The notes beneath the pieces were generated by a model. It was not told where the DNA came from. It made no database searches and was given only the letters and a program-made list of their open reading frames with translations. Below are positions 1,828-26,168 of a DNA stretch of 32,000 bases, in pieces (the stretch's first letter is position 1; each line of letters begins with the position of its first letter). The translations under genes and the position numbers were made by a program. Location: assembly GCF_001457615.1 (NCBI RefSeq), contig NZ_LN831024.1:150001-182000 (forward strand), given 5' to 3'. Source of the stretch: Pseudomonas aeruginosa. GTDB lineage: Bacteria; Pseudomonadota; Gammaproteobacteria; Pseudomonadales; Pseudomonadaceae.

Positions 1828-3126
1828 TCACCCCTTCACATGGCGCCGCTCCCCCATCACCCAGGTCTCCGCCACCGCGCGGTCGTCGCCCAGGGTGTTC
1901 AGCACGAACAGGGTATCGGCCAGGCCGCGCGCATGCTCCATGCGCTGGGCGATCATCGGCGTGGCGGCCAGGTCGAGGGCGACGAAGTCGGCTTCGCGGC
2001 CGGGCAGGAAGTTACCGACCAGGCCGTCCAGGTCGAGCGCCCTGGCGCCGCCGAGGGTGGCCAGGTAGAGCGCCTGGAACGGATCGAGGCTGGTGCCGCG
2101 CAATTGCTGGATCTTGTAGGCGTCGGCGAGGTTGGCCAGCAGCGACAGGCTGGTGCCGCCGCCGACGTCGCTACCGATGCCGACGCGGATGCCGTATTGC
2201 TGGGCGCGGCCAAGGTCGAACAGGCCGGAGCCGATGAACAGGTTGGAACTGGGACAGTGCGCCAGCGCCGCGTTCTTGTGCGCCAGGCAGCGGCATTCGC
2301 GTTCGGAGAGATGGATGCCATGGGCGAACACGCTGCGTTCGCCGACCAGGCCGGCGCGATGATAGACGTCCAGGTAGTCCTGCGCCTGGGGAAACAGCTC
2401 GCCGACCCAGGCGACTTCCTTGAGGTTCTCCGAAAGATGGGTGTGCAGGTAGACGCCGGGATACTCGTCCAGCAGGCGCGCCGCCGCGGCCAGTTGCTCG
2501 GGCGAGGAGGTCGGCGCGAAGCGCGGGGTGACCGCGTATTGCAGGCGCCCGTTGCCGTGCCAGCGCTCGATCAGCGCGCGGCTCTCGGCGTAGCCACTGG
2601 CCGCGGTATCGCACAGCGCCGGCGGCGCGTTGCGGTCCATCAGCACCTTGCCGGCGATCATCCGCAGGCGGCGCTTCTGCGCGGCCTGGAAGAATGCCTC
2701 GGCGGATACCGCATGGACCGTGCCGAACACCAGCGCGGTAGTGGTGCCGTGGCGCAGCAGTTCGTCGAGGAACAGCTCGGCCTGGGCGGCGGCGTAGCCG
2801 GCATCGGCAAAGCGCTGCTCGGCGGGAAAGGTGTGGGTTTCCAGCCAGTCCAGCAGTTGGGTGCCGTAGGAGGCGATCACTCCGAGTTGCGGGTAATGCA
2901 CATGGCAGTCGACGAAGCCGGGCAGCAGCAGGCGCTGCGGATGGTCCTCCAGCGGCAGGTCGGCGGGCAGTTGCGGCAGCAGGTAGGTTGCGTGATCGAG
3001 CGCGCGCACGTGGCCGTGTTCGATCCACAGCAGGCCGTCCTCGAAATACTCCCAGGCCTTGTCGCCGAGTTTCGCCGGGTCGCCGAGGAAATGCAGGATC
3101 CGCCCGCGATGGGCCGAACTGCTCAT
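1828..3126 (-). CDS. guaD: guanine deaminase (amidohydrolase superfamily)
   Basis: The ORF 1828..3198 shows strong colinear similarity, by recall, to E. coli GuaD: PGFVDCHVHYPQ (HxH), TALVFGTVH, RMIAGKVLMDRNAP, AVTPRFAPTSSPEQL, HTHLSEN, HCPSSNLFIGSG, GIGSDVGGG, LATLGGA. I prefer the internal ATG at 3126 (MSSSAHRGRILHF), which has GGCGGGAG upstream and aligns with the GuaD N-terminus. The 3198 start would add 24 unconserved residues. Confidence 0.9.
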   Translation of the reverse strand: MSSSAHRGRILHFLGDPAKLGDKAWEYFEDGLLWIEHGHVRALDHATYLLPQLPADLPLEDHPQRLLLPGFVDCHVHYPQLGVIASYGTQLLDWLETHTFPAEQRFADAGYAAAQAELFLDELLRHGTTTALVFGTVHAVSAEAFFQAAQKRRLRMIAGKVLMDRNAPPALCDTAASGYAESRALIERWHGNGRLQYAVTPRFAPTSSPEQLAAAARLLDEYPGVYLHTHLSENLKEVAWVGELFPQAQDYLDVYHRAGLVGERSVFAHGIHLSERECRCLAHKNAALAHCPSSNLFIGSGLFDLGRAQQYGIRVGIGSDVGGGTSLSLLANLADAYKIQQLRGTSLDPFQALYLATLGGARALDLDGLVGNFLPGREADFVALDLAATPMIAQRMEHARGLADTLFVLNTLGDDRAVAETWVMGERRHVKG

Positions 3127-3308
3127 CGCGCTCCCGCCGTGGTCGGAGTGCAGGATAAGTGGGGGGACGAAGTTGCCAGCAGGTACTGCATCGTTCATCT
3201 CCTCTGCTGCCGGAATGGCGCTTTCGCCTCTTTAGTCCGGGAAATCGACGGAAATATCCCGTCTTTGGCGCGTGATCTCGCTTCCGCCATTATGCACTGT
3301 GCGCATGC

Positions 3309-4307: not shown

Positions 4308-5879
4308 ATGTCCGCACCTTCCTCTTTCGCGCCGCCGCGCCTCGAACTGCGCGGGATCAGCAAGCGTTATCCGGGTTGCCTGGCCAACGACCGCATCGAC
4401 CTGTGCATCGACGCCGGCGAGATCCACGCCCTGCTCGGTGAGAACGGCGCCGGCAAGAGCACGCTGATGAAGATCATCTACGGCGTGACCCGTCCCGATG
4501 CCGGCGAGATCCGCTGGCAGGGCGAGCCGGTGCAGGTACGCGACCCGGCTCGCGCCCGGGCGCTGGGGATCGGCATGGTGTTCCAGCATTTCTCCCTGTT
4601 CGAGACGCTCAGCGTGGCGGAGAACATCGCGCTCGCCCTCGGCGCCGAGGCGGGCAGCCCGCGTCGGTTGGAGGCGCGTATTCGCGAGGTGTCGCAGCGC
4701 TACGGCATGCCGCTGGAGCCTCGCCGGTTGGTCCATGGGCTGTCCATCGGCGAGCGCCAGCGGGTGGAGATCGTGCGCTGCCTGATGCAGGACATCCGCC
4801 TGCTGATCCTCGACGAGCCGACCTCGGTGCTGACCCCGCGCGAGGCCGAGGATCTCTTCGTCACCCTGCGCCGTCTTGCGGAGGAGGGTTGCAGTGTCCT
4901 CTTCATCAGCCACAAGCTGGCCGAGGTCCGTGCGCTCTGCCAGCGCGCCACGGTGCTGCGCGGCGGACGGGTGGCCGGACAGTGCGTGCCGGCGCAATGT
5001 TCCGATCTCGAGCTGGCGCGGCTGATGGTGGGCGACGCCGAGGGCCTGGCGGCGGAGTATCCGAAGGCTACCGGCGGCGCGCCTTTCCTCCAGGTGCGCG
5101 ACCTGCACTGGCGCAACCCGGACCCCTTCGGCGTGTCCTTCACCGGCCTCGACCTGGAGGTGCGCAGCGGCGAGATCCTCGGTATCGCCGGGGTCGCCGG
5201 CAACGGCCAGGACGAGTTGCTCGCTCTGCTCAGCGGCGAAGTGCGCCTGCCGCGCGCCCAGGCCGAGCGCATCCGCCTCGGCGGCTGCGCCGGCGCGCAC
5301 CTGGCGCCGGATGCGCGGCGCCGCGCCGGCCAGGCCTTCGTGCCCGCCGAGCGGCTGGGGCACGGCGCGGTGCCGGAGATGAGCCTGGCGGACAATGCGC
5401 TGCTCACCGCCTTCCAGCAGGGTCTGGTGAAGCGCGGGTTGGTCCGGCGGCGCAAGGTGCTGGCGCTGGCCGAGGAGATCATCCGCCGTTTCGCCGTGAA
5501 GACCCCGGGTGCCGGGGCGCCGGCACGCAGCCTTTCCGGCGGCAACCTGCAGAAGTTCATTCTCGGCCGCGAGATCCTCCAGGCCCCGCGCCTGCTGGTG
5601 GCGGCGCATCCCACCTGGGGCGTGGACGTCGGCGCGGCGGCGCTGATCCACCGCGCGCTGATCGCCTTGCGCGATACCGGTACGGCGATCCTGGTGGTCT
5701 CCGAGGACCTCGACGAGCTGTTCCTGCTCAGCGACCGCATCGCCGCGCTGTGTTCGGGTCGGCTGTGCCCGGCGGTCGCCACCGCGAGCGCTTCGCCGCA
5801 GCAGGTCGGCGGCTGGATGGCCGGTCAATTCGAGGCGCCGGCGGCGGTCGCCGGCGCCGTTGCCCAAGGGAGCCTGTGA
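4308..5879 (+). CDS. ABC transporter ATP-binding protein with duplicated ATPase domains (sugar/nucleoside CUT2-type, BMP-family importer)
   Basis: Frame of ORF 4149..5879. The ATG at 4308 (MSAPSSFAPPRLELRGISKRYPG) gives 523 aa. Two Walker A motifs (GENGAGKST, GVAGNGQDE) and two signature motifs (LSIGERQRV, LSGGNLQKF). The residues upstream of 4308 are Arg/Cys-rich and do not look like protein. Confidence 0.9.
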   Translation: MSAPSSFAPPRLELRGISKRYPGCLANDRIDLCIDAGEIHALLGENGAGKSTLMKIIYGVTRPDAGEIRWQGEPVQVRDPARARALGIGMVFQHFSLFETLSVAENIALALGAEAGSPRRLEARIREVSQRYGMPLEPRRLVHGLSIGERQRVEIVRCLMQDIRLLILDEPTSVLTPREAEDLFVTLRRLAEEGCSVLFISHKLAEVRALCQRATVLRGGRVAGQCVPAQCSDLELARLMVGDAEGLAAEYPKATGGAPFLQVRDLHWRNPDPFGVSFTGLDLEVRSGEILGIAGVAGNGQDELLALLSGEVRLPRAQAERIRLGGCAGAHLAPDARRRAGQAFVPAERLGHGAVPEMSLADNALLTAFQQGLVKRGLVRRRKVLALAEEIIRRFAVKTPGAGAPARSLSGGNLQKFILGREILQAPRLLVAAHPTWGVDVGAAALIHRALIALRDTGTAILVVSEDLDELFLLSDRIAALCSGRLCPAVATASASPQQVGGWMAGQFEAPAAVAGAVAQGSL

Positions 5880-10441: not shown

Positions 10442-11514
10442 TCAGGCCGGGATATCCAGGTTCGCGTGGCCCGGCGCGGCGGCCGCCTCGGCGTAGACCT
10501 TCTCGTCCTCCTCGATCACCCGCGAGGCCGGCCCCACCAGCAACGGGTCGGGCTCATGGGCGATGCGCCGGTCCTTGTCCGGGTAGTCCAGCGAGTGCAG
10601 GAAGTGGCGGATGCAGTTGAGTCGCGCGCGCTTCTTGTCGTCGGACTTGATGACCGTCCACGGCGCGTCGGCGGTGTCGGTATGGAAGAACATCGCCTGC
10701 TTGGCGGCGGTGTAGTCGTCCCACTTGTCCAGAGACTTGATGTCGATGGGCGACAGCTTCCAGTGCTTGAGCGGATCGTCGCGGCGCGAGATGAAGCGCC
10801 GCAGTTGTTCCTCGCGGCTCACCGAGAACCAGTACTTGAACAGCAGGATGCCGCTGTTGGTGAGCATACGCTCCAGCTCCGGCGCCTGGCGCATGAACTC
10901 CAGGTATTGCAGCGGCGAACAGAAGCCCATGACCCGCTCGACGCCGGCGCGGTTGTACCAGGAGCGGTCGAAGAAGACCATCTCGCCGGCGGTGGGCAGA
11001 TGTTGGATGTAGCGCTGGAAATACCACTGGCCCTGCTCCTGGGAGGACGGTTTCTCCAAGGCTACGATCCGCGCGCCGCGCGGGTTCAGGTGTTCCATGA
11101 AGCGCTTGATGGTGCCGCCCTTGCCGGCGGCGTCGCGGCCTTCGAACAGGACCACCACGCGCTGGCCGGTCTCCTTCACCCAGCTCTGCACCTTGAGCAG
11201 TTCGATCTGCAGGTCGTGCTTGGCCTTCTCGTACTCGTTGCGGCGCATCCGCGTGTGATAGGGATAGTTCGCCGGCAGGCTCGCCGAGGTGCTGTCCTCG
11301 CTGCTGCCGTGGGGCGCACTGGCGACCTGCAGGGCCACCGGCTTCTGGCTGATTGCCTGGATCTCCTCGCGGGCCTTCTGCGCCGGGCTGGCCACTCGCG
11401 GGCGGCGGGTCGCCGGCTTGCGCGGGCGCGGCGGGCGGCTGGCCGGGCCGGCTTGGCCGGCTGCGCGGCGGGTTGCTCGGGGGAGGGGGGACTGACAGTG
11501 GGTTCTTCGCTCAT
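10442..11514 (-). pseudogene. ppk2: polyphosphate kinase 2 (polyP:NDP phosphotransferase) with an apparent -1 frameshift in the 5' region. The catalytic domain (10442..11395) is intact.
   Basis: ORF 10442..11395 (GTG start, no SD) encodes a complete PPK2 domain: Walker A GRDAAGKGG, FDRSWYNRAGVE, WKLSPID. The well-placed GGAAGGAG-N6-ATG at 11514 (MSEEPTVSPPSPEQPAAQPAKPARPAARRA...) is in a different frame. The distance from that ATG to the stop is 1073 nt, which is not a multiple of 3. One extra C in the run at 11424-11426 (GGG on the + strand) would give a 357-aa protein. Confidence 0.6.
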
Positions 11515-11794
11515 GCGGGACTCCTTCCGTTCTACGTTTTCAGCTATGCAGTCCCCCACTCTATGCCCCTGCCGGGAGGCGTCCGTTGACCCCCATCAAA
11601 CCGCGCCCGGCCGCCACCGGGAGGAAAGCCTTACACCTCTCCAGAAATCCCTTGTAGGATATCGCCACGCGAGTGGCGCCCCGTCGTCGCCCCGCGGACC
11701 TGGATCAGCAGACAGGGTGAACACTGAGCTGGCTCTCATCAACCGAGGGCCGGCAGCGTTCGCGCCGGCCCGCCGATCCGACGAAGGTCCGCAC

Positions 11795-13143
11795 ATGTCC
11801 CGCACCTGGATTCGCAATCCCCTCGCCATCTTCACCGCCAACGGTCTCGACGCCGCCGGCGGCCTGGTCGTCGAAGACGGCCGCATCGTCGAGCTGCTCG
11901 GCGCCGGCCAACAGCCCGCGCAGCCCTGCGCCAGCCAGTTCGACGCCAGCCGGCACGTGGTGTTGCCGGGGCTGGTCAACACCCATCACCACTTCTACCA
12001 GACCCTCACCCGCGCCTGGGCGCCGGTGGTCAACCAGCCGCTGTTCCCCTGGCTGAAGACCCTCTACCCGGTCTGGGCGCGGCTGACCCGGAGAAACTCG
12101 CACTGGCCACCAAGGTGGCGCTGGCCGAGCTGCTGTTGTCCGGCTGTACCACTGCCGCCGACCACCACTACCTGTTTCCCGGCGGCCTCGAACAGGCCAT
12201 CGACGTGCAGGCCGGGGTGGTCGAGGAACTGGGCATGCGCGCCATGCTCACCCGCGGCTCGATGAGCCTCGGCGAGAAGGACGGCGGCTTGCCGCCGCAG
12301 CAGACGGTGCAGGAAGCCGAGACCATCCTCGCCGACAGTGAGCGACTGATCGCCCGCTACCACCAGCGCGGAGACGGTGCCCGGGTGCAGATCGCCCTGG
12401 CGCCCTGCTCGCCGTTCTCGGTGACTCCGGAGATCATGCGCGCCAGCGCCGAAGTGGCGGCGCGCCACGACGTACGCCTGCACACCCACCTGGCGGAGAC
12501 CCTCGACGAGGAAGACTTCTGCCTGCAGCGCTTCGGCCTGCGTACCGTGGACTACCTGGATAGCGTCGGCTGGCTCGGCCCGCGCACCTGGCTGGCCCAC
12601 GGCATCCACTTCAACGCCGAGGAGATCCGCCGGCTCGGCGAGGCGGGCACCGGTATCTGCCATTGCCCGAGTTCGAACATGCGCCTGGCCTCGGGCATCT
12701 GCCCGACCGTGGAGCTGGAGGCGGCCGGCGCGCCGATCGGCCTGGGAGTCGATGGCTCGGCCTCCAACGACGCCTCGAACATGATCCTCGAGGCGCGCCA
12801 GGCCCTGTACCTGCAACGCCTGCGCTACGGCGCCGAGCGGATCACCCCGGAACTCGCCCTGGGCTGGGCCACCCGTGGCTCGGCACGCCTGCTCGGGCGC
12901 AGCGACATCGGCGAGCTGGCCCCCGGCAAGCAGGCCGACCTGGCCTTGTTCAAGCTCGACGAGCTGCGCTTCTCGGGTAGCCACGACCCGCTCTCGGCGC
13001 TGCTGCTGTGCGCTGCCGACCGTGCCGACCGGGTAATGGTCGGCGGCGCCTGGCGAGTGGTCGACGGTGCCGTGGAAGGGCTCGACCTGGCCGCCCTGAT
13101 CGCCCGCCACCGCGAGGCGGCGAGCGCCCTGATCGCCGGGTGA
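11795..13143 (+). pseudogene. 8-oxoguanine deaminase-type amidohydrolase (TRZ/ATZ / SsnA-like), split by a -1 frameshift near 12087-12089
   Basis: The N-terminal part, from the ATG at 11795, reads MSRTWIRNPLAIFTANG...LPGLVNTHHHFYQTLTRAWAPVVNQPLFPWLKTLYPVWARLT, then degenerates (RRNSHWPPRWRW...) and stops at 12265. The frame of ORF 12115..13143 reads upstream as PEKLALATKVALAELLLSGCTTAADHHYLFP and continues through HTHLAET, HCPSSNMRLASG and GLGVDGSASND to a normal C-terminus. CTGACCCGGAG at 12083-12093 would need CCCC to stay in frame. Confidence 0.8.
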
Positions 13144-13151
13144 GGCGGGCG

Positions 13152-13184
13152 CCGACAGAGGAGGCGCCAGGCTTCCTCTGTCGG
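13152..13184 (+). terminator. strong hairpin after the amidohydrolase gene
   Basis: CCGACAGAGGA...TCCTCTGTCGG is an 11-bp perfect stem, extendable to about 14 bp, starting 9 nt after the stop. The T-tract is weak (TTCGCA). Confidence 0.5.
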
Positions 13185-13250
13185 TTCGCATAGGTCGGCG
13201 CGTGGCCCGCAACTGGCTAGACTGTGGCATTCCCCACCAGGAGCCGCCCC

Positions 13251-14303
13251 ATGTCACGCGCCGCCCGCCCATGCAATCGCTTTTGCAGCCTTCTGCTAGG
13301 ACTCGCCCTGCTGATGCCCGCCAGCCTTCCTCTGTCCGCTGCCGAAACGGTGGCGCCGCCATTGCCGCGGACGCTGATCATCGACACCGATCCGGGCGCC
13401 GACGATGTGATCGCCCTGCTGTTCGCCATGGCCTCGCCGAAGGAGCTGAAGATCCAGGCGCTGACCACCGTCGCCGGCAACGTGCCGCTGGAAAAGACCG
13501 CGCGTAACGCCCGGCTGGCCCGCGAGTGGGGCAAGCGCCCGGATATTCCGGTCTACGCCGGCGCCCCGCGACCGCTGCTGCGCACGCCGATCTACGCCGC
13601 CGACGTGCACGGCAGCGAAGGCATCAGCGGCGTCGAGGTGCATGAGCCGAAGCAGCCGCTGGCCGAAGGTAACGCCGTGGACTACCTGATCCGCACCTTG
13701 CGTGCGGCGCCGGAGAAGAGCGTGACCCTGGCCATGCTCGGCCCGGAGACCAACCTCGCGCTGGCCCTGACCCAGGCCCCGGACATCGTCAAGGGCATCC
13801 GCGAGATCGTGATCATGGGCGGCGCCCACTTCAACGGCGGCAACATCACCCCGGCCGCCGAATTCAATATCTTCGCCGACCCCCACGCGGCGGAAATCGT
13901 GCTCAAGAGCGGGGCGCCGATCACCATGCTGCCGCTCGACGTGACCCACAAGATCCTCACCAGCCCCGAGCGCATCGCCAAGCTGCGCAACCTCGGCAAC
14001 CAGGCCGGCAAGACCGTCGCCGACATCCTCGACGCCTACGTCCAGTACGACATCAAGTACTACGGCCTGAAGGGCGGCCCGGTGCACGACGCCACGGTGG
14101 TCGCCTACCTGCTCAAGCCCTCGCTGTTCAAGGGCAAGCGGATCAACGTGCAGGTCGACAGCCGCGAGGGCATCACCTTCGGCCAGACCGTGGCCGACTG
14201 GTACGGCGGCCTCAAGCAGCCGGCCAACGTCGAGTGGATCAACGAGGGCGACGCCCAGGGGTTCTTCGACCTGCTCACCGAGCGTATCGCCCGCCTGCCC
14301 TGA
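13251..14303 (+). CDS. nuh: inosine/uridine-preferring (nonspecific) ribonucleoside hydrolase with an N-terminal signal peptide
   Basis: ATG at 13251 with AGGAG 8 nt upstream; 350 aa. The N-terminus MSRAARPCNRFCSLLLGLALLMPASLPLSAAE looks like a Sec signal. The IUNH fingerprint IIDTDPGADD follows. The track start at 13224 lacks an RBS. Confidence 0.9.
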   Translation: MSRAARPCNRFCSLLLGLALLMPASLPLSAAETVAPPLPRTLIIDTDPGADDVIALLFAMASPKELKIQALTTVAGNVPLEKTARNARLAREWGKRPDIPVYAGAPRPLLRTPIYAADVHGSEGISGVEVHEPKQPLAEGNAVDYLIRTLRAAPEKSVTLAMLGPETNLALALTQAPDIVKGIREIVIMGGAHFNGGNITPAAEFNIFADPHAAEIVLKSGAPITMLPLDVTHKILTSPERIAKLRNLGNQAGKTVADILDAYVQYDIKYYGLKGGPVHDATVVAYLLKPSLFKGKRINVQVDSREGITFGQTVADWYGGLKQPANVEWINEGDAQGFFDLLTERIARLP

Positions 14304-14330
14304 GTCTCTCGTCGTACGGCCGGCGCCGGG

Positions 14331-14957
14331 TCAGCCGTGGCGCCGGCTGGCGAGTTGGCGCAGGGCCTGCTCGGCGTCGCCGACGACTAGCGTTGCCGGC
14401 ACCGCCAGCATCAGATTGAGCGGCAGGCCGAACTCTTCCAGGGTCATGCCGTCGCGGTCGCGGGTCGGATCCTCGCCGATCAGCTCCGGGGCGTGCCGGC
14501 GGATTCGCTCGGCGTAGCTGCCGGCGTCGTCGACGTAGCCATAGACCGGCTTGCCGAGGGCGGTGGCATAGCCGACCTCGAAGGCGGTGCCGCTGTCCGG
14601 CTCGGCGCCGCGGAAGAAGTTCAGGTTGGCCAGCACCGCGTCGGCGCGTTCGATCAGGCCGATGTTGGCGCGGTAGATCCAGGCCGCCTGTTCGCGCGGC
14701 TCGGCGAGCTGTTTCGGCAGCGCGTTGTCCAGCGGGTAGAGGCCCTCGAAACCGTAGCGTGCGCACAGTGCCTTGAGTGCTTCGCCGTGGGCGACGGCGT
14801 CGGCGCGGAACACATCGGGACCGGCCAGATAGAGTTTCCGCGGCCTGGCCGCGGCGCGTACACCCGGCAGGCTGCCGAGCAGGGCGCCGGCGGGCAGCAG
14901 CAGGGCTGCCAGGCGCAGGAAGGTACGACGGCTGCTGGAACCCTTGGATCGGTTCAT
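14331..14957 (-). CDS. nucleoside 2-deoxyribosyltransferase-family protein with a twin-arginine (Tat) signal peptide
   Basis: 208-aa ORF with AGAGG 6 nt upstream of the ATG. The N-terminus MNRSKGSSSRRTFLRLAALLLPAGALLGSLPGVRAAA carries an SRRxFL Tat motif. NDT-family motifs LYLAGPDVF and EPDSGTAFEVGYA are present. Confidence 0.85.
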   Translation of the reverse strand: MNRSKGSSSRRTFLRLAALLLPAGALLGSLPGVRAAARPRKLYLAGPDVFRADAVAHGEALKALCARYGFEGLYPLDNALPKQLAEPREQAAWIYRANIGLIERADAVLANLNFFRGAEPDSGTAFEVGYATALGKPVYGYVDDAGSYAERIRRHAPELIGEDPTRDRDGMTLEEFGLPLNLMLAVPATLVVGDAEQALRQLASRRHG

Positions 14958-15078
14958 CGGATGCCTCTTGCAGGCCGGCCTCCCGGATGGGGCCGTTGTT
15001 GTCCAGCATTATGGCCGGCAAGCGACAGGCCGGGCGGCGGCTATCTGCCAGCAGCTAGGCGACGGCCTTCCCGCGATG

Positions 15079-15594
15079 TCAGGCGCGCTCGAGTTCCTCG
15101 GCGAGGCGTCGCAGAGCCTCGCGCGGGCCGCCGGCGACCAGCCGCGAAGGCACCGCCAGCATCAGGTTCAATGGCAGGCCGAAACCCTCCAGTTGCCAAC
15201 CGTCGCGGTCCTCGCCGGGGTGCTCGCCGAGCCATTCCGGGGCCAGCCGGGCGAGGCGCTCGGTGTAGGCGCCGGCATCGCTGAGGTAGGCATATACCGG
15301 CTTGCCCAGGGCCAGGGCGTAACCCACTTCGAAGGCGGTGCCGCTGTCCGGCTCGCTGCCGCGGAACGGTTCGAGGTTGGCCAGCACGCAGTCGGCGCGC
15401 TCGATCAGGCCGACATTGGCGCGGTAGATCCAGGCGGCCTGTGCGGCTGGCTCGCGGATGTCGGCGGGCAGGGCGTGGTCGAGCGGGTAGAGGCCGACGA
15501 AGCCGAACTCGGCGCAGAGCGCCTTGAGGGTTTCGCCATGGGCTTCGGCGTCGGGGCGGAAGACGTCCGGCCCGGCCAGGTAGATCGCGGTCAT
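15079..15594 (-). CDS. nucleoside 2-deoxyribosyltransferase-family protein (cytoplasmic paralog, no signal peptide)
   Basis: 171-aa ORF, MTAIYLAGPDVFRPDAEAHGETLKALCAEFGF...EPDSGTAFEVGYALALGKPVYAY. By eye it is roughly two-thirds identical to the mature part of the upstream paralog. Confidence 0.85.
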   Translation of the reverse strand: MTAIYLAGPDVFRPDAEAHGETLKALCAEFGFVGLYPLDHALPADIREPAAQAAWIYRANVGLIERADCVLANLEPFRGSEPDSGTAFEVGYALALGKPVYAYLSDAGAYTERLARLAPEWLGEHPGEDRDGWQLEGFGLPLNLMLAVPSRLVAGGPREALRRLAEELERA

Positions 15595-15832
15595 CGCGTG
15601 CGTGCCTTGTTACGGAAAGCCAGCGCCCATGGTAGCGCCATCGTGGCGGCGCCGGCATGCACCAAGCGATGGCGCGCTGCACCGTCCTGCAGCCGCGCCG
15701 GCATGACGCGGCGCGCAGAAGCGCGAGCTTGAGCGGAGTTGTCCGGGTGGTCAGGTAATTGCATCGGCGGGCGGGCTGAACGCGAAGCCACGCCCGATGG
15801 CCAACCCTGCACTCACCGGAGCACGCCCATCC

Positions 15833-16930
15833 ATGAAACACCGTCGCACGCAATCCCGCATGTCCGTCCTGCGCCGCCTTGCCGCCGTCCTCGGCCTCGG
15901 CGCCTGCGCTCTCGCCGCCGAGGCCGCCGAACCACTGAAGATCGGCTTCGTCTATGTCGGCCCGGTCGGCGACCACGGCTGGACCTACCAGCACGAACTG
16001 GGCCGCCGCGAACTGGTGGAGCACTTCGGCGACAAGGTGAAGACCAGCTTCGTCGAGAACGTCGCCGAGGGCGCCGACGCCGAGCGGGTCATCCGCAACC
16101 TGGCGAAAGACGGCTACGGCCTGGTCTTCACCACCTCCTTCGGCTACATGAACCCTACCGCCAAGGTGGCCCGGCAGTTTCCCAAGGTGACCTTCGAGCA
16201 CGCCACCGGCTACAAGCGCGACAGGAACCTCGGCACCTACCTGTCGCGCTCCTACGAGGGACGCTACGTCGGCGGCTTCCTCGCGGCGAAGATGACCCGC
16301 AGCCACAAGATCGGCTACATCGCCTCGTTTCCGATTCCCGAGGTGATCCGCGACATCAACGCGATCCAGCTGGCGCTGGACAAATACGACCCGCAGGCCG
16401 AACTCAAGGTGATGTGGGTGAGCACCTGGTTCGATCCGGGCAAGGAGGCCGACGCGGCCACCGCGCTGATCGACCAGGGCGTCGACGTGGTGTTCCAGCA
16501 CACCGATAGCCCGGCGCCGATCCAGGCCGCCGAGCGTCGCGGGGTGTACGCCGTGGGCTACGCCTCGGACATGCAGCACTTCGGTCCGAAGACCGTGCTC
16601 ACCTCGATCGTCAACGACTGGGGCCCGCACTATATCCGCTCGGCCCAGGCGGTGATGGACGGCACCTGGAAATCCGAGGACTTCTGGGGTGGCCTGGCCG
16701 AGAGTACGGTGGTCCTGCCGCTGAACCAGGAGGTGCTGCCGGCGCCGGTGCGGGAAGAGGCGGGCAGGCTGATCGAGTCGATCCGCAGCGGAGCCTTCCA
16801 CCCCTTCACTGGGCCGATCCGCGACCAGTCCGGCAAGGAGCGTTTCGCCGCCGGCGTCAGCGCGACCAATGCCGACCTGGCGTCGATGAACTATTACGTG
16901 GAAGGCATCAAGGCCGACCTGCCGAAGTGA
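15833..16930 (+). CDS. BMP-family (PnrA/Med-like) ABC transporter substrate-binding protein, probable nucleoside-binding lipoprotein
   Basis: Frame of ORF 15797..16930. I prefer the ATG at 15833 (MKHRRTQSRMSVLRRLAAVLGLGACALAAEAAEP), which has GGAG 11 nt upstream. The signal peptide has a possible LGAC lipobox. BMP-family core: LKIGFVYVGPVGDHGWTYQH...FTTSFGYM...GYIASFPIPEV. Alternative starts at 15797 and 15860. Confidence 0.85.
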   Translation: MKHRRTQSRMSVLRRLAAVLGLGACALAAEAAEPLKIGFVYVGPVGDHGWTYQHELGRRELVEHFGDKVKTSFVENVAEGADAERVIRNLAKDGYGLVFTTSFGYMNPTAKVARQFPKVTFEHATGYKRDRNLGTYLSRSYEGRYVGGFLAAKMTRSHKIGYIASFPIPEVIRDINAIQLALDKYDPQAELKVMWVSTWFDPGKEADAATALIDQGVDVVFQHTDSPAPIQAAERRGVYAVGYASDMQHFGPKTVLTSIVNDWGPHYIRSAQAVMDGTWKSEDFWGGLAESTVVLPLNQEVLPAPVREEAGRLIESIRSGAFHPFTGPIRDQSGKERFAAGVSATNADLASMNYYVEGIKADLPK

Positions 16931-17002
16931 GCCCTGGCCTTGTATGGAAAAAGTCGCCGAGCGCAGGCACTTTCCGTACAGGACCCATCGAGGAGAGCGC
17001 GA

Positions 17003-17965
17003 TTGGACCGTCTACCCATCATCGACATCGCCCCGCTCTACGGCGCCGACCGTGGCGCCTGGAACGACGTGGCGCGGCGGATCGACCAGGCCTGCCGCGA
17101 GTGGGGCTTCTTCTACATCGCCGGACACCCGCTGCCGGCCGCGCGCTTCGAAGCCCTGTTGGCGGCGGCGCGGGAGTTCTTCGCGCTGCCCGTCGAAGAG
17201 AAGCTGAAGATCGATATCACCCGTAGCCGCAATCATCGCGGCTATGGCGCGATCGCCACCGAGCAGCTCGACCCGGCGTTGCCCAGCGACTTCAAGGAGA
17301 CCTTCGACATGGCCCTGCACCTGCCGGCGGAGCATCCCGACGTGCGCGCCGGCAAGTCCTTCTACGGGCCCAACCGACACCCCGACCTGCCCGGCTGGGA
17401 GGCCCTGCTGGAAGGACACTATGCCGACATGCTGGCGCTGGCCCGTACCGTGCTGCGCGCCCTGGCCATCGCCCTGGGGATCGAGGAGGACTTCTTCGAT
17501 CGCCGCTTCGAGCAGCCGGTCAGCGTGTTCCGCCTGATCCACTATCCGCCGGCCTCGGCCCGGCAGAGCGCCGACCAGCCCGGCGCCGGCGCGCACACCG
17601 ACTACGGCTGCGTGACCCTGCTCTACCAGGACGCCGCCGGTGGCCTGCAAGTGCAGAACCGCCAGGGCGAATGGATCGACGCGCCGCCCATCGACGGCAC
17701 CTTCGTGGTCAACATCGGCGACATGATGGCGCGCTGGAGCAACGACCGTTACCGCTCGACCCCGCACCGGGTGATCAGCCCGCGCGGGGTGCACCGCTAC
17801 TCCATGCCGTTCTTCGCCGAACCGCACATGGACACCGAGATCCGCTGCCTGCCGGGCTGCTTCGACGCGGACAACCCGCCGAAGTATCCGCCGACCACCT
17901 GTGGCGATTGGCTGACCTCGCGCTTCGCGCAGACCTATGCCTATCGGCGCGGCGAAACGGCCTGA
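17003..17965 (+). CDS. 2-oxoglutarate/Fe(II)-dependent oxygenase (isopenicillin N synthase-like family), substrate unknown
   Basis: Frame of ORF 16940..17965. There is no ATG near the 5' end. The TTG at 17003 has AGGAG 7 nt upstream and gives MDRLPIIDIAPLY..., the usual N-terminus for this family. The facial triad is HTD (GAHTDYG) plus H (STPHRV), with RYS for 2OG binding. The TTG at 16940 is the alternative start. Confidence 0.8.
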   Translation: MDRLPIIDIAPLYGADRGAWNDVARRIDQACREWGFFYIAGHPLPAARFEALLAAAREFFALPVEEKLKIDITRSRNHRGYGAIATEQLDPALPSDFKETFDMALHLPAEHPDVRAGKSFYGPNRHPDLPGWEALLEGHYADMLALARTVLRALAIALGIEEDFFDRRFEQPVSVFRLIHYPPASARQSADQPGAGAHTDYGCVTLLYQDAAGGLQVQNRQGEWIDAPPIDGTFVVNIGDMMARWSNDRYRSTPHRVISPRGVHRYSMPFFAEPHMDTEIRCLPGCFDADNPPKYPPTTCGDWLTSRFAQTYAYRRGETA

Positions 17966-18054
17966 GCCGCCCGTCGCGCGCGGGAGCGGCTCGCGGGTTT
18001 GCCGCGGGCCTGACTCCCGGGACAGGTTAAACTTGCCGGCCAAGACCAGCCTGA

Positions 18055-19020
<966 letters not shown>

Positions 19021-19026
19021 GGGGCG

Positions 19027-19049
19027 GCGTGCCGGGTAGCCCGGCGCGC
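19027..19049 (+). terminator. GC-rich hairpin after the deaminase gene
   Basis: GCGTGCCGGG-tag-CCCGGCGCGC forms about 10 bp including one G-U pair. It starts 7 nt after the stop. No T-tract. Confidence 0.35.
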
Positions 19050-19086
19050 GACCCGCAAGGCGTTTCGTCGTCGCTGGCTTCTCGGC

Positions 19087-19105
19087 ATTGATGATAAGCA
19101 TTATC
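19087..19105. promoter_or_regulatory. Fur box upstream of the ECF sigma gene
   Basis: ATTGATGATAAGCATTATC matches the 19-bp Fur consensus GATAATGATAATCATTATC at 15 of 19 positions. It lies about 70 nt upstream of the sigma-factor start. Confidence 0.7.
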
Positions 19106-19174
19106 ATTTGAAGGCCTGCTCAGCATTCCCATGGCGCCGCCCCGGCGCCGGCTTTCGTGCAGCCGTCCTCACCG

Positions 19175-19762
19175 ATGCCCGACCGCGACCTACCTCCCGG
19201 CCCGCGCCCGGATGCCTTGCCGGCAGACGGCGAGGCGGCGCGCCGCGCGGATCTCCTCAAGGCCTTCCTGGCCCAGCGCCAGCGCATGGAAAGCCTGGTC
19301 AGCCGCTGGGTCGGCTGCCGGGCGACCGCCGCCGACCTGGTCCAGGAACTGTTCCTGCGCTTCTGGCGGCGCCCGGCCGCCCCGGTGGAGGAGCTTGGCA
19401 GCTACCTCCTGCGCAGCGCGCGCAACCTGGCCATCGACCACTTGCGTGGCGAAGGATCGCGGCAACGGCAACTGGACGACTGGCTGCCGGAGCAGCGCCA
19501 GGGCGAGCCGGTCGGTCCCGAGCAGGCGCTCGAGGCCGGCGACCAGTGGCGCCGGGTCGAGGCCGCCTTGCGCGGCCTGCCCGAGCGCACCCGGCGGATT
19601 TTCCTGCTCAATCGCATCCACGGCCGCACCTACGCGGAGATCGCCCAGGCCATGCAGCTTTCCCAAAGCGCCGTGGAAAAACATATGATGCGCGCCCTCG
19701 ACGCCTGCAAGGCGAGCCTGGCCGGCCCGGCCGGCGAGCAGGCAAGGAGCGCCCAGCCATGA
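19175..19762 (+). CDS. ECF (FecI-type, iron-starvation) RNA polymerase sigma factor
   Basis: Frame of ORF 19157..19762 (GTG). I prefer the ATG at 19175. Region 2 (DLVQELFLRFW) and region 4 HTH (RTYAEIAQAMQLSQSAVEKHMMRAL) are present. A Fur box lies upstream and a FecR-like gene overlaps downstream. Confidence 0.88.
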   Translation: MPDRDLPPGPRPDALPADGEAARRADLLKAFLAQRQRMESLVSRWVGCRATAADLVQELFLRFWRRPAAPVEELGSYLLRSARNLAIDHLRGEGSRQRQLDDWLPEQRQGEPVGPEQALEAGDQWRRVEAALRGLPERTRRIFLLNRIHGRTYAEIAQAMQLSQSAVEKHMMRALDACKASLAGPAGEQARSAQP

Positions 19763-20754
19763 CCCGACCCGATAGCGACGCCGCGCCCTACGAGCCCGTC
19801 CTCGAGCAGACCGCACAGGCCTGGCTGGTGCGCCTGCGCGGTACGCCGGATGCGGCGACCCGGCGGGCCTTCGAGGACTGGCTGGCGCAGCGGCCGGCGC
19901 ATGCCGAGGCCTATGCCCGCGCCGAGGCGCTCTGGCGCCTGACGGAAATACCGGCGAGCCGCCTGGCCATCGAAGAGGCCGATGCCCTGGAAGCCTACCT
20001 GCGGCCGCGCCGAGCGTCGCGCAACCCGCGGCGCTGGGCCTACCCGCTGGCCAGCGTCGCCTGCCTGCTGGCGATGCTCTGGCTGGGCGGCTGGTGGCAG
20101 CCCGGCGACTGGCTGCAGGACTGGCGTGCCGACTATGTCGCCGCGCCGGGACAGGTCGCCGAATGGAAGCTGGCCGATGGCTCCTACCTGAGCCTGGACG
20201 CCGGCAGCGCGGTGCGCGTGCGTATCGACGGCGGCCAGCGGCGGGTCGAACTGCTGCGCGGCGCCGCCGCGTTGTGGGTGAAGCGCGACGCGCTGCCATT
20301 CGTGGTCGAGGCCGGCGAAGGTCGGGCGCGGGTACTGGGCACCGAGTTCGAGGTCCGTCGCGGCGCCGGGGCGACCCGCGTCACCGTGTTGCAAGGGCGG
20401 GTCGCGGTGAGCGCCGGCACCGGTGCGGGCGCCGCCGAGGAAGTGCTGGGCGCCGGCCAGCAGGTCGGCTTCGCCGACGGCAAGCTGGGCCGGCCCGTGG
20501 CCATCGACGCCGCCGCCGCGCTGGCCTGGCGCCAGGGTTGGCTGAGCTTCTACCGGCGGCCGCTGGCGGAAGTGCTCGACGAACTCGCTCGCTACTACCC
20601 CGGACGCATTCTCCTGCTCGACGACGCGCTCGGCCGCCAGCCGGTCAGCGGCAGCTTCCGCAGCGACGATCCCGAAGCCGCGCTGAAGTCGCTGCAGGCG
20701 GTGCTCGGCTATCGCCAGCAGATCCTGTTCGGACGCCTGGTGGTGATTCGCTGA
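19759..20754 (+). CDS. FecR-family transmembrane anti-sigma factor / signal transducer
   Basis: The ATG at 19759 overlaps the sigma stop (ATGA), with AAGGAG 9 nt upstream. 331 aa: the N-terminal anti-sigma domain (AQAWLVRLRG...AFEDWLAQRPAHAEAY), one TM segment (PLASVACLLAMLWLGGWW) and a periplasmic FecR domain (VLGTEFEV). The track ORF 19108..20754 is an out-of-frame 5' extension across the sigma gene. Confidence 0.88.
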   Translation: MTRPDSDAAPYEPVLEQTAQAWLVRLRGTPDAATRRAFEDWLAQRPAHAEAYARAEALWRLTEIPASRLAIEEADALEAYLRPRRASRNPRRWAYPLASVACLLAMLWLGGWWQPGDWLQDWRADYVAAPGQVAEWKLADGSYLSLDAGSAVRVRIDGGQRRVELLRGAAALWVKRDALPFVVEAGEGRARVLGTEFEVRRGAGATRVTVLQGRVAVSAGTGAGAAEEVLGAGQQVGFADGKLGRPVAIDAAAALAWRQGWLSFYRRPLAEVLDELARYYPGRILLLDDALGRQPVSGSFRSDDPEAALKSLQAVLGYRQQILFGRLVVIR

Positions 20755-20901
20755 CGGCGGCCCCGCTCCGTTTGGCCGCAGGAATCTTTCCCGGCGAAGA
20801 ATTTTTTTGCGCTGGGGGGTGAGGTAAATCCGGCGCCGCTTCGTGTAGTGCTCATGACCGCGATTGATTCGCATTAGAAAAGCGACCGACACGAGCAACC
20901 C

Positions 20902-23289
20902 ATGACCCCCTTCCCGCGCTTCGCCCTGCGTACTCTCCCCGCCCTGTTCCTCAGCCTCGGCTGTCTCGCCGCCACCGCGCAGGCCGCCGAGGCGGTTCGC
21001 TACCGCTTCAGCCAGGCTGCCGCGCCGCTGGCCCAGGCGCTCAACGCGTTCAGCCGGGCCAGCGGGCAGACGCTGCTCTACACCGCCGAGCTGCCGCCGC
21101 AGGCGACCGCCCCGGCATTGCACGGTTCGCTGGACGCGGAGGAGGCGCTGCAACGCCTGCTGCAGGGCAGCGGCCTGCGCGCGCGGCGGATCGACGAGCG
21201 CACCCTGACCCTGGAACCGATCCCCGCCAGCGGCGCGCTCGACCTCGATGCCACGACGGTCTCCGCCGCCGCCCCGGCGCAGGGCTACCGGCCGGCGGCC
21301 AACGCCTCGATCAGCCGCGGCGATGCGCCGCTACTGGATATCCCCCAGGCGATCAGCGTGGTCCCGGCACAGGCGCTGCAGGACCAGCGCCCGCGCAACC
21401 TTGACGACGCGCTGGGCAACATCAGCGGCATCACCCAGGCCAACACCCTTGGCGGTACCCAGGACGCGGTGATGAAGCGCGGCTTCGGCGACAACCGCGA
21501 CGGCTCGATCATGCGTGACGGCATGCCCTCGGTGCAGGGCCGCAATTTCACCGCCACCGCCGACCACGTCGAGGTGCTGAAGGGGCCTGCATCCCTGCTC
21601 TATGGCATCCAGGACCCGGGCGGGGTGGTCAACGTGGTGAGCAAGAAGCCGCAACTGCAACAAGCCAACGCCCTGACCCTGCGTGGCTCGGCCTACGCCC
21701 ACGGGCGCAACGGCAGCGGCGGCCAGCTCGACTCCACCGGCCCGCTGGGCGACAGCGGACTGGCCTACCGGATGATCCTCGATCATGAGGACGAGGATTA
21801 CTGGCGCGACTTCGGCAAGAGTCGCGAGACGCTGGTGGCGCCCTCGCTGGCCTGGTACGGCGAGGACACGACGGTCAACCTGAGCTACGAGCACCGCGAG
21901 TTCACCACGCCGTTCGACCGTGGCACGGCCATCGACCCGCGTACCAACCGCCCGCTGGACATCCCGCGCAGCCGGCGCCTGGACGAGCCCTTCAACATCA
22001 CCGAGGGCCGTTCCGAGCTGACCCGCCTGGATCTCGAACGGCAGCTCGACGACACCTGGAAGGCCCACTTCGGCTACGGCTACAGTCGCGAGACCTACGA
22101 CGACAACCAGGCCCGGGTGATGGCCGTGAATGCCGACGGCACCCTGACCCGGCGCATGGACGGCACCCACGGCGCGGTCAGCAGCGACAGCTTCGCCACC
22201 CTCGACCTGAGCGGAACGCTGCAACTGGCCGGGATGCAACATGACCTGCAATTCGGCATGGACCACGAGAAGCGCAAGATCTTCCGCGCCGACCTGCTGC
22301 GCGACAGCAAGACCAGCCGCTTCGACTACCTCGACCCGGTCTATGGCCAGGTGGTGCCGTCGACCCGGGTGGTCGCCGGCGACAGCGACCAGACCGACAA
22401 GCTGCGCAGCGACTCGCTGTACTTCCAGGACTCGATCCACCTGGACGAACGCTGGATCCTGGTCGGCGGCGCGCGCTACCAGATCTACGACCAGCTCGCC
22501 GGGCGCGGCCGGCCGTTCAACGCCAACACCGATATCAACGGGCAGAAATGGGTGCCGCGCGGCGGCCTGGTCTACCGCCTGAGCGACGAGGTTTCGCTGT
22601 ACGGCAGCTACACGCGCTCGTTCAAGCCGAACTCGACCATCGCCCCGCTGAGCACCGGCGAGACCATCGATTCGGCGATCCTGCCGGAGGAGGCGACCTC
22701 CTGGGAGCTGGGCGCCAAGCTGGATGTGCCGGGGCGTCTCAGCGGCACCCTGGCGCTGTTCGACATTCGCAAGAAGAACGTGCTGGTCAACGAACTCGAC
22801 GGTGCCGGCAACAGCAGCGTGCGCGCCGCCGGCCGGGTCCGCTCGCGCGGCCTGGAGCTGGACCTCACCGGCCAGCTCAGCGAACGCTGGAGCCTGATCG
22901 GCAGCTACGCCTGGCTCGCCGCGGAAGTCACCGAGGACCCGACCCTGGAGGGCAAGCGCCTGCAGAACGTGGCGCGCAACACCGCGTCGCTGTCGGCGGT
23001 CTACGAACTCGGCCAGCTCTTCGGCGGCGACCGCCTGCGCCTGGGCGGCGGCGCGCGCTACGTCGGCAAGCGCCCGGGCGACCCGGCCAATTCCTTCGAC
23101 CTGCCGTCCTACACCGTGGCCGATGCCTTCGCCAGCTACGACACCCGCTTCGGCGGGCACGGCGTGAAGTTCCAGCTCAACGTGAAGAACCTGTTCGACC
23201 GCACCTACTACCCGTCCAGTGCCAATCGACTGTACGTGGCGATGGGCGAGCCCCGGCAGTTCCAGGTGTCGACGACGGTGGAGTTCTGA
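20902..23289 (+). CDS. TonB-dependent siderophore-type receptor with an N-terminal signalling (STN) extension (transducer)
   Basis: 795-aa ORF. Signal peptide ...CLAATAQA. STN-like segment (FSQAAAPLAQALNAFSRASGQTLLYTAE...LLQGSGLRARRIDERTLTLEP). Plug domain (VEVLKGPASLLYG). Beta-barrel ending ...QFQVSTTVEF with a terminal Phe. Confidence 0.92.
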   Translation: MTPFPRFALRTLPALFLSLGCLAATAQAAEAVRYRFSQAAAPLAQALNAFSRASGQTLLYTAELPPQATAPALHGSLDAEEALQRLLQGSGLRARRIDERTLTLEPIPASGALDLDATTVSAAAPAQGYRPAANASISRGDAPLLDIPQAISVVPAQALQDQRPRNLDDALGNISGITQANTLGGTQDAVMKRGFGDNRDGSIMRDGMPSVQGRNFTATADHVEVLKGPASLLYGIQDPGGVVNVVSKKPQLQQANALTLRGSAYAHGRNGSGGQLDSTGPLGDSGLAYRMILDHEDEDYWRDFGKSRETLVAPSLAWYGEDTTVNLSYEHREFTTPFDRGTAIDPRTNRPLDIPRSRRLDEPFNITEGRSELTRLDLERQLDDTWKAHFGYGYSRETYDDNQARVMAVNADGTLTRRMDGTHGAVSSDSFATLDLSGTLQLAGMQHDLQFGMDHEKRKIFRADLLRDSKTSRFDYLDPVYGQVVPSTRVVAGDSDQTDKLRSDSLYFQDSIHLDERWILVGGARYQIYDQLAGRGRPFNANTDINGQKWVPRGGLVYRLSDEVSLYGSYTRSFKPNSTIAPLSTGETIDSAILPEEATSWELGAKLDVPGRLSGTLALFDIRKKNVLVNELDGAGNSSVRAAGRVRSRGLELDLTGQLSERWSLIGSYAWLAAEVTEDPTLEGKRLQNVARNTASLSAVYELGQLFGGDRLRLGGGARYVGKRPGDPANSFDLPSYTVADAFASYDTRFGGHGVKFQLNVKNLFDRTYYPSSANRLYVAMGEPRQFQVSTTVEF

Positions 23290-23574
23290 GTCGGCGCTCG
23301 CTCCAGGTGGGGTTCCCCGGCGTCCTCCTGGACGTGGAGGCCCCCCTGAAGGGCGAAGGGTCGGCGCGATGCTGCCCGACCATGCTCCATCTGGTTCCTT
23401 CTTCCCCAGGGAAGGGATTGCCCGGCGCGTGAGTCGTTCCGCCATCCAGTGCCTTCTCCCTTTGGGGAAAGGAAGGCGGAGAACCGCCTGGCACGACCTC
23501 GCCGCACGCCACACCTCGTTCCCAACCCGCCCGTTGGGTACCATGCCCGCACCACTCGCCGCCACGGCCGCCCC

Positions 23575-24492
23575 ATGAACCTCGACAACCGCATCAAGTT
23601 CCGCCACCTCGCCTGCTTCCTCGAAGTCGCCCGCCAGCGCAGCTTCGCCAAGGCGGCGGATGCCGTGGCGGTGTCGCAGCCGGCGATCTCCAAGACCCTC
23701 AAGGAACTGGAGGAAATCCTCGGCGCGCGCCTGTTCGAACGGAGCAAGGCCGGCGCCGAGCTGACCGAGGCGGGCGTGACCTTCCTGCGCTATGCCGGCC
23801 CCTGCGTGCAGGCCCTGCGCGACGGGGTGAACACCCTGCGCGGCCACGAGGCGCAGGTCGAGACGGTGCGGGTCGGCGTGCTGTCGACGGTGGAGAGCCT
23901 GGTGGTGCCCGAGGTGATCCGGCGCCTGCACCGGCGCCACGGTGCGCTGGTGGTCAGCGTCGCCACCGGACCCAGCGCCTACCTGCTGGCGCAACTGAAG
24001 GTCGGCGAGCTGGACCTGGTGGTCGGGCGGATGACCGATAGCCCGGACATCCAGGGCCTGACCTTCGAGCACCTGTACAGCGAGTCGATGATGCTGGTGG
24101 TGCGTCCCGGCCACCCCTTGCTCGCCGCGCCCCTCGGCGACCCGCAGCGGCTGGCCGAATTCCCGCTGGTGCTGCCGCTGGCCGGCACCACCATCCGCCG
24201 CCACGCCGACAGCCTGTTCGTGCAATGGGGCATCCCGCTCGCCGGACAGCGCCTGGAAACCCTCTCGCCGACCCTCAGCCGCAGCTATGTGTTGCGCAGC
24301 GAGGCGATCTGGGTGGCGCCGCGCGATGCCGTGCGCCTGGACGTCGGCAACGGCGAGCTGGCCGAGCTGGACCTGGGTATCCGCGAACCGGGCGGTTCGG
24401 TCGGGCTGTGCCACAACGCGGCCTTGCCGTTGCCGCTGGGGGCGCAATGGTTCAGCGCGGTGTTGCGCGAGGTGGCCGCCGAGTTGCACTGA
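23575..24492 (+). CDS. pcaQ: LysR-family regulator of protocatechuate dioxygenase genes
   Basis: Frame of ORF 23449..24492. The ATG at 23575 gives MNLDNRIKFRHLACFLEVARQRSFAKAADAVAVSQPAISKTLKELEEILGARLFERS (LysR HTH), 305 aa. It lies directly upstream of pcaHG, with a PcaQ-type box downstream. Confidence 0.88.
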   Translation: MNLDNRIKFRHLACFLEVARQRSFAKAADAVAVSQPAISKTLKELEEILGARLFERSKAGAELTEAGVTFLRYAGPCVQALRDGVNTLRGHEAQVETVRVGVLSTVESLVVPEVIRRLHRRHGALVVSVATGPSAYLLAQLKVGELDLVVGRMTDSPDIQGLTFEHLYSESMMLVVRPGHPLLAAPLGDPQRLAEFPLVLPLAGTTIRRHADSLFVQWGIPLAGQRLETLSPTLSRSYVLRSEAIWVAPRDAVRLDVGNGELAELDLGIREPGGSVGLCHNAALPLPLGAQWFSAVLREVAAELH

Positions 24493-24498
24493 TAAAGC

Positions 24499-24514
24499 AT
24501 AACCAAATGGTTAT
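24499..24514. promoter_or_regulatory. PcaQ-type operator, ATAACC-N4-GGTTAT perfect dyad
   Basis: ATAACCAAATGGTTAT begins 7 nt after the pcaQ stop and lies 113 nt upstream of the pcaH ATG. From memory, the PcaQ site in rhizobia is ATAACC-N4-GGTTAA. Confidence 0.6.
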
Positions 24515-24626
24515 GTATGGGGCCGGATAATTCACTGTCCCCGTCCCGCCTCCTGCGCAAGACTTCGTTTTCCATGCCTGAATCCACAAGCCTGGCGACC
24601 GATAACGCGAATAACAGGAGCCCGAC

Positions 24627-25346
24627 ATGCACGACGCCGAAAGCCGTCGTTTCGTCATCCGTGACCGAAACTGGCACCCCAAAGCCTTGACCCCCGACTA
24701 CAAGACCTCCGTGCCGCGCTCGCCGAGCCAGGCGCTGGTGAGCATCCCGCAATCGCTCTCGGAAACCAGCGGGCCGGACTTCTCCCACCTCAGGCTCGGC
24801 CGCCACGACAACGACCTGCTGCTCAACTTCGACCACGGCGGCCTGCCCCAGGGCGAGCGCATCATCATGTTCGGCCGGGTCTTCGACCAGTACGGCAAGC
24901 CGGTCCCGCACACCCTGGTGGAGATGTGGCAGGCCAACGCCGGCGGGCGCTACCGGCACAAGAACGACCGCTACCTGGCGCCGCTCGACCCGAACTTCGG
25001 CGGCGTCGGCCGGACCCTCACCGACAGCGAGGGCCACTATTACTTCCGCACCATCAAGCCCGGGCCCTATCCCTGGCGCAACGGCCCCAACGACTGGCGC
25101 CCGGCGCACATCCACGTGTCTGTCAGCGGCCCGGCGATCGCCGCGCGGCTGGTCACCCAGATGTACTTCGAGGGCGACCCGCTGATCCCCAAGTGCCCGA
25201 TCATCCGCACCCTTGCCGACCCGGAGGCGGCGCAGAGCCTGATCGGCCGGCTCGACATGAGCATGGCCAACCCGATGGACTGCCTGGCCTACCGCTTCGA
25301 CATCGTCCTGCGCGGGCAGCGCAAGACCTTCTTCGAGAACGCCTGA
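24627..25346 (+). CDS. pcaH: protocatechuate 3,4-dioxygenase beta subunit
   Basis: 239-aa ORF with AGGAG 7 nt upstream. Intradiol dioxygenase motifs [21 protein letters not shown] and RPAHIHVSV. Confidence 0.96.
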
Positions 25347-25356
25347 GGAGCCGACC

Positions 25357-25962: not shown

Positions 25963-25989
25963 GCGCATCGATCGCGCGGGAAGGAAGGG

Positions 25990-26014
25990 CGCCCTTGCCG
26001 GAGCGGCAAGGGCG
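25990..26014 (+). terminator. 10-bp perfect hairpin after pcaG
   Basis: CGCCCTTGCC-ggagc-GGCAAGGGCG, 28 nt after the stop. No T-tract. Confidence 0.45.
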
Positions 26015-26104
26015 TACCCAGAACCCGCCGATGGGTACCTGACATTACTCCCGGAGGGCGATGGGTAGCCCCGACAGTACTACAGTCGGAGGCGCTCCGG
26101 TCAA

Positions 26105-26138
26105 TTGCGATGATCGAACGAGTGTCCGATAATCGGCG
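26105..26138. promoter_or_regulatory. candidate PcaR (IclR-type) operator overlapping the pcaR promoter
   Basis: TTGCGATGATCGAAC (26105-26119) and GTGTCCGATAATCGGCG (26122-26138) resemble, in opposite orientations, the remembered P. putida PcaR 15-mer GTTCGATAATCGCAC. They lie 30-60 nt upstream of the pcaR start. Confidence 0.45.
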
Positions 26139-26168
26139 AGCCTTTCCGTGACCCGAGCCCGAACGTCC

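Follow-up and report, generated by a model that had tools for sequence, protein, structure and literature searches.

Genomic Context

The window, i.e., the whole stretch of 32,000 nucleotides of Pseudomonas aeruginosa DNA that was analysed, carries a purine-salvage and oxidative-stress neighbourhood of the PAO1 type, which includes guanine deaminase, a nucleoside ABC transporter, ahpCF, ppk2, the deaminase described here, and nuh, together with two nucleoside deoxyribosyltransferase-like genes, a Bmp-family binding protein, and an adenosine deaminase. The gene order ppk2, deaminase, nuh is the same in all the fetched loci, and in the other complete genomes the deaminase gene sits roughly 150-165 kb into the record. 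In particular, ppk2 (PA0141) is located on the minus strand at 10442..11514, divergent from the deaminase, and the ATG of its 357-aa form is at 11514-11512; the downstream neighbour of the deaminase, nuh, lies on the plus strand at 13251..14303 and encodes an intact nucleoside hydrolase of 350 aa, which served as a lineage marker for the fetching of related loci. Between the deaminase stop codon and nuh, an inverted repeat (CCGACAGAGGAGG…CCTCTGTCGG) spans positions 13150-13190; it looks like a terminator or a REP-like hairpin, and it is not called by a simple terminator scan because it has no T run.

Reading Frames of the Deaminase Gene

As written, the deaminase gene, the orthologue of PA0142, is divided between two reading frames of the plus strand. 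Frame A starts at the ATG in 11795-11797 and contains the first 98 codons of the enzyme (11795..12088; MSRTW...NTHHHFYQ...YPVWARLT, ending LVNTHHHFYQTLTRAWAPVVNQPLFPWLKTLYPVWARLT), including the HxH zinc motif with H64 and H66. The frame then continues into an out-of-frame tail of 58 codons (RRNSHWPPRWRW..., 12089..12265, plus strand) that has no homology to the enzyme and is closed by a TGA at 12263-12265, the product of frame A as written being of 156 aa. The remaining 351 codons, i.e., codons 99-449 of the enzyme, are found at 12088..13143 in frame B, which is -1 with respect to frame A, (12115-11795) mod 3 being equal to 2, and is open from 11728 to the stop codon at 13141-13143. From base 12088, this frame reads PEKLALATKVALAELLLSGCTT...HTHLAET...HCPSSNMR...GVDGSASND, so that the second part of the enzyme begins with PEKLALATKV and carries H232, H269, and D320. 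The earliest possible start in frame B is a GTG at 12115, which gives an ORF of 342 aa corresponding, by exact protein look-up, to the deposited protein CKG65353.1.

The two frames meet in the junction CTGACCCGGAG (12083-12093), within which the CCC run at 12087-12089 on the plus strand lacks one base, and this deficit causes the change of frame. The original prediction, made from the letters of the window, had placed a -1 shift at this run, and it is borne out in the position of the junction as well as in the partition of the codons. At 12262-12265, the sequence ATGA makes the TGA of the out-of-frame first ORF overlap with a frame-B ATG, which would start a C-terminal fragment of 293 aa; this arrangement resembles a coupling junction but is a by-product of the frameshift.

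Identity of the Repaired Enzyme

The addition of one C to the CCC run restores, as anticipated, a protein of 449 aa, which in a collection of 15 billion proteins is an exact match to the commonest 8-oxoguanine deaminase allele of P. aeruginosa, with at least 1000 contigs and 8174 index blocks containing it. The arrangement is not due to chance, since the two frames encode, at 100% identity, adjoining halves of a single known protein. The anticipated identity as an 8-oxoguanine deaminase is likewise confirmed by the NCBIfam profile NF006055 (8-oxoguanine deaminase), to which the protein aligns with 703.3 bits over profile positions 4-452 of 455, only after the insertion of the C, against a curated equivalog cutoff of 532 bits. 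With respect to P0002, the representative of a P. aeruginosa cluster of 1891 members, 444 of 449 residues are identical and no gaps occur across the junction. Each of the 120 orthologues among the matches listed is a single protein, with a length of 449-453 aa in every case but one and an overall range of 449-478 aa; the alternative considered at the outset, that orthologues could naturally be arranged as two ORFs with the same junction, finds no support among them.

The repaired protein aligns over residues 21-447 to 3HPA (E = 4e-121), which we take to be a homologue from an environmental sample, and to the isocytosine deaminase VCZ, 7WW2 (6e-116). Both structures are homologues, not the same protein, and were used solely for mapping the ligands onto the fragments; the repaired protein retains their HxH, His, and Asp ligands as well as the catalytic His. 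In VCZ (PDB 7WW2), the Zn ligands are His68, His70, His234, and Asp322, with His271 acting on the catalytic water (PMC10481359). In the alignment of the repaired protein, His68 and His70 correspond to H64 and H66, which belong to the first fragment, and the counterparts of His234, His271, and Asp322 are H232, H269, and D320, which belong to the second, so that a complete mononuclear zinc site with the catalytic His in one polypeptide is absent from the sequence as written and present in the repaired one. The ligands being divided between two ORFs, neither ORF alone could form the metal site, in agreement with what had been predicted for the fragments. The amidohydrolase 3HPA is named as Pa0142 in PMC10481359, and, in the same article, Pa0142 is the 8-oxoguanine deaminase attributed to Hall et al. 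2010, as stated in the original prediction, acting on 8-oxoguanine, guanine, isocytosine, and ammeline. In comparison with Pa0142, the repaired translation is the commonest allele while the ORF of the window is broken after codon 98. Judged from its sequence, the gene is an ordinary, normally uninterrupted 8-oxoguanine deaminase (PA0142 orthologue), a zinc amidohydrolase placed in a purine-salvage neighbourhood.

Two peculiarities were observed among the database relatives of the enzyme. The protein P0001 (478 aa, from an 8.5-kb contig of P. aeruginosa) contains a perfect tandem duplication of 29 residues, MLTRGSMSLGEKDGGLPPQQTVQEAETIL (twice), after residue 150, which may be real or an assembly artefact. 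In addition, the 90%-identity cluster of P0002 also contains the downstream nucleoside hydrolase (350 aa), presumably through some public record whose gene call, fused or read through, bridges the deaminase and nucleoside hydrolase families.

Search for the Lesion in Other Genomes

A total of 42 loci were fetched, some of them repeats of the same contig, and the nearest relatives were reached by exact look-ups of window proteins with clone-specific alleles. The site is covered in 36 P. aeruginosa loci, all of which have CCCC and are in frame there; the survey of other P. aeruginosa genomes proposed with the original prediction was thus carried out and recovered the lesion in none of them. Three of these loci show 0 substitutions with respect to the window and carry CCCC: L024 (JGI sample 3300045367), aligned to 9761-30754 (20,994 nt); L042 (GCA_008629785.1), aligned to 11710-28804 (17,095 nt); and L033 (GCA_021592175.1), aligned to 11634-21130 (9.5 kb). 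They are independent assemblies from three projects. The only differences between L024 and the window are one-base gaps at 11424 and 12087, the missing C is the single difference in L042, and L033 shows one gap. Other close relatives with CCCC are L030 (GCA_051208255.1; 1-15877, 15.9 kb) with 2 substitutions, L034 (ENA ERZ28589904; 11634-21130, 9.5 kb) with 2, L037 (GCA_025130255.1; 11634-21130, 9.5 kb) with 3, and L025 (GCA_028435685.1; 9760-30754, 21 kb) with 5. The original prediction had named resequencing to CCCC as the result that would overturn it, and such a result is available by proxy in the three assemblies without substitutions.

The 156-aa frameshift product has no exact match in the protein collection and no relative at 90% identity or above among 5.8 billion clusters; its full-length matches are just fragments with 52-71% identity, none of them named P. 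aeruginosa, that break at other positions. The C-terminal ORFs of 342 aa and 312 aa are instead present in the protein collection by exact look-up. L001 (CP083353.1) and L002 (Logan SRR23032943) were considered as instances of the lesion and rejected, since CCCC is intact in both and their fragments derive from other indels. In particular, the exact 342-aa fragment is recorded on two contigs only, and L001, which is one of them, has CCCC and a different lesion; no Logan assembly is among the sources of this fragment, though the FecR allele of the clone occurs in Logan.

Single-base indels are frequent in some of the fetched loci (9 in 7 kb in L001, 6 in 2 kb in L002, and 32 in ~21 kb in L022, GCA_020180815.1), where several genes are broken. 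The deaminase fragments are of 342 aa in L001 and L022 and of 312 aa in L002, with CCCC intact in each; since these fragments stem from other lesions, the deaminase fragments found in databases are mostly assembly noise.

Scans of two contig collections carry no weight for the question. In genome_contigs, the CCC junction gave 0 matches, and a P. aeruginosa representative is seemingly absent or masked there; in metagenome_contigs, the CCC and CCCC junctions both gave 0 matches despite the presence of CCCC in the JGI contig L024. A conserved 36-mer just upstream of the window, present in 5/5 loci (L027-L031), matches only P. paraeruginosa ATCC 9027 in genome_contigs.

A Second Contraction and Other Private Differences

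A further one-base contraction is located 663 bp upstream of the C-run deficit, at 11424..11426 on the minus strand, where the window has GGG and all the other covering loci (28/28) have GGGG. L024 is the only assembly without substitutions that reaches this position and it has GGGG, as does L030 (2 substitutions in 15.9 kb). Across the ~30.7 kb covered by loci of the same clone, the private indels of the window are exactly two, those at 11424 and 12087, both in four-base G/C runs.

The contraction at 11424 puts the first ~30 codons of polyphosphate kinase 2 (PA0141) out of frame in its 357-aa form, the one present in UniProt as PK21A_PSEAE, and shifts the start of the reading frame: at the PPK2 start, L024 reads MSEEPTVSPPSPEQPAAQPAKPARPAARRAPRKPATRRPRVASPAQK… and the window switches frame after …ARRA. 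The starts of the 317-aa and 298-aa PPK2 forms lie downstream of the contraction, are unaffected by it, and are still open.

Two other differences are intergenic and lie in the 1.1 kb that separate guaD (1828-3198) from the ABC transporter gene (4308). One is a deletion at 3998, where the window has CCATG and most strains have CCAATG or CCGATG; at first seemingly private, it is common to L030 and therefore represents a true polymorphism of the lineage. The other is a G at 3381, where all the other covering loci, L030 included, have T. This is the sole private substitution found in the window, and on its account the strain of the window is not strictly identical to L030, the only near relative that covers the position.

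Probable Assignment to the Type-Strain Clone

The proteins of the window find exact matches in two accession series: the ABC-transporter ATPase (4308-5879) in AKO84342.1 and CKG65177.1, the PA0146 protein in AKO84351.1 and CKG65508.1, and the FecR protein in AKO84355.1 and CKG65646.1. On the strength of these accessions, the type-strain clone (DSM 50071/NCTC 10332) appears to be the source of the window. The 342-aa C-terminal ORF has a single deposition, CKG65353.1, whose number falls within this CKG range. The CKG series is presumably that of NCTC 10332 (LN831024), a further assembly of the type strain made from SMRT/PacBio data only. PMC12843653 identifies LN831024 as NCTC 10332, and the DSM 50071T genome, CP012001, was sequenced on PacBio RS II alone at 843x (PMC4543509).

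Between the ABC-transporter ATPase gene and PA0146 there are 9 genes, for which the AKO numbering has room for 8 identifiers, so that one of the nine is probably a pseudogene in the independent 843x assembly of DSM 50071T as well. If that pseudogene were PA0142, the lesion would be common to two assemblies, and it would then be genuine in the type strain or else reflect a systematic, context-dependent error.

Origin of the Missing Base

The missing C is best explained, with a probability of about 0.65, by a consensus (assembly) error due to the under-calling of a G/C homopolymer rather than by biology. One C of the four-C run would have been lost when the genome consensus was built, as long-read-only assemblies tend to do, the source presumably being the PacBio-only assembly of the type strain; both contractions, at 11424 and 12087, would then be technical and not biological, and the organism itself would keep an intact, functional deaminase gene. 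The deficit is in fact private to this record even with respect to assemblies that are otherwise identical base for base, and it has the features by which a homopolymer consensus error is recognized, i.e., a single-base length change in a mononucleotide run, a second such change nearby, and no excess of substitutions. Real divergence normally gives many more substitutions than indels, and the two indels against 0 substitutions found with L024 are the opposite of the usual ratio, which fits the pattern of long-read errors; the occurrence of the second private homopolymer contraction at such a short distance also points to a consensus error over biology. Long-read errors are described as fragmenting genes through frameshifts in PMC12007338, and the window shares with the homopolymer indel errors considered there the single-base deletion in a G/C run, its privacy, the second deletion nearby, and the lack of substitutions. 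From this likeness we infer the assignment of the window to errors of this kind. The sequence-level statements of the original prediction hold, while the loss of the enzyme in the strain that it implied is doubtful, CCCC being present in the assemblies with 0 substitutions.

A less probable explanation, which still has an appreciable share, is a genuine one-C deletion private to this culture-collection stock or type-strain lineage, in which PA0142 would be a true pseudogene; the 156-aa product would bear the HxH ligands only, no full-length enzyme would be made, and the deletion in the G run of ppk2 would be a second real event or derive from the same error-prone repair tract. Slippage in homopolymers is frequent among real mutations, the deaminase gene is probably dispensable, the substitution at 3381 shows some real private divergence, and the gap in the AKO numbering suggests that the 843x assembly of DSM 50071T is also without a protein for one of the nine genes. 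Against a genuine deletion stand the CCCC of three assemblies with 0 substitutions against the window over 9.5-21 kb, the unlikely coincidence of two real indels in 663 bp without a substitution in 21 kb, and the distribution of the exact 342-aa fragment, whose two contigs include L001 with its intact run and whose sources include no Logan assembly. The lesion resembles an ordinary strain-private frameshift pseudogene in that slippage in a mononucleotide run would have inactivated a probably dispensable catabolic gene; it differs in that it occurs in no other examined genome, including three without substitutions, and is in this respect more artefact-like. That both deletions are real and arose together in the type-strain stock, for example through error-prone repair synthesis favouring -1 deletions in G:C runs, is improbable.

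Programmed -1 ribosomal frameshifting or transcriptional slippage at ACC-CGG, restoring the full-length enzyme, has a negligible likelihood: a -1 slip right after Thr98 (ACC) would indeed read CCG GAG, i.e., the wild-type ...LTPEK..., but the junction CUG ACC CGG AGA has no X XXY YYZ slippery heptamer, a tRNA-Thr positioned at ACC is unable to re-pair with GAC, the 36 relatives all do without a frameshift, and the orthologues among the matches listed are single ORFs in 120 cases out of 120. A run of three C is, moreover, too short for transcriptional slippage, and an Rfam scan of the whole window gave no family match, with no riboswitch or recoding element. Equally hard to credit is a natural two-gene split enzyme, in which two polypeptides would assemble into an active amidohydrolase, since the coupling-like overlap of the first-ORF stop with the in-frame ATG of the second frame is countered by a first product ending in 58 out-of-frame residues, by a restart at 12262 that would drop enzyme residues 99-156, by a GTG at 12115 with no usable ribosome-binding site at normal spacing, and by the fact that no orthologue among the matches listed is split at this point. 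Both programmed frameshifting and the split enzyme were rejected on these sequence grounds and for the lack of conservation.

Relevance for Annotation

The biological weight of the missing base is small, as nothing is new in the enzyme, in its family, or in its genomic context, and the broken copy is an ordinary private pseudogene if not an artefact. Its practical value is that of a curation flag, because the record appears to derive from the type-strain clone, a reference in use for the species. If the frameshift is false, downstream annotation, pan-genome, and metabolic-model work inherits a spurious fragment annotated as hydroxydechloroatrazine ethylaminohydrolase (CKG65353.1) and lacks the 8-oxoguanine deaminase, and the start of ppk2 is affected likewise. 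If the lesion were true, the type strain would lack 8-oxoguanine deaminase and, with the second deletion also real, PPK2 would need a downstream start codon; the strain would then be a natural null mutant for the in vivo role of the deaminase, near the ahpCF oxidative-stress genes.

A discrepancy of a different kind concerns the guanine deaminase (PA0134 orthologue, 1828-3198, minus strand), whose 456-aa translation has no exact counterpart in the 15-billion-protein collection. Its DNA is identical in L030, where the protein is called from a downstream start as 432 aa, and the difference seems to be a matter of start-site choice, with no lesion.
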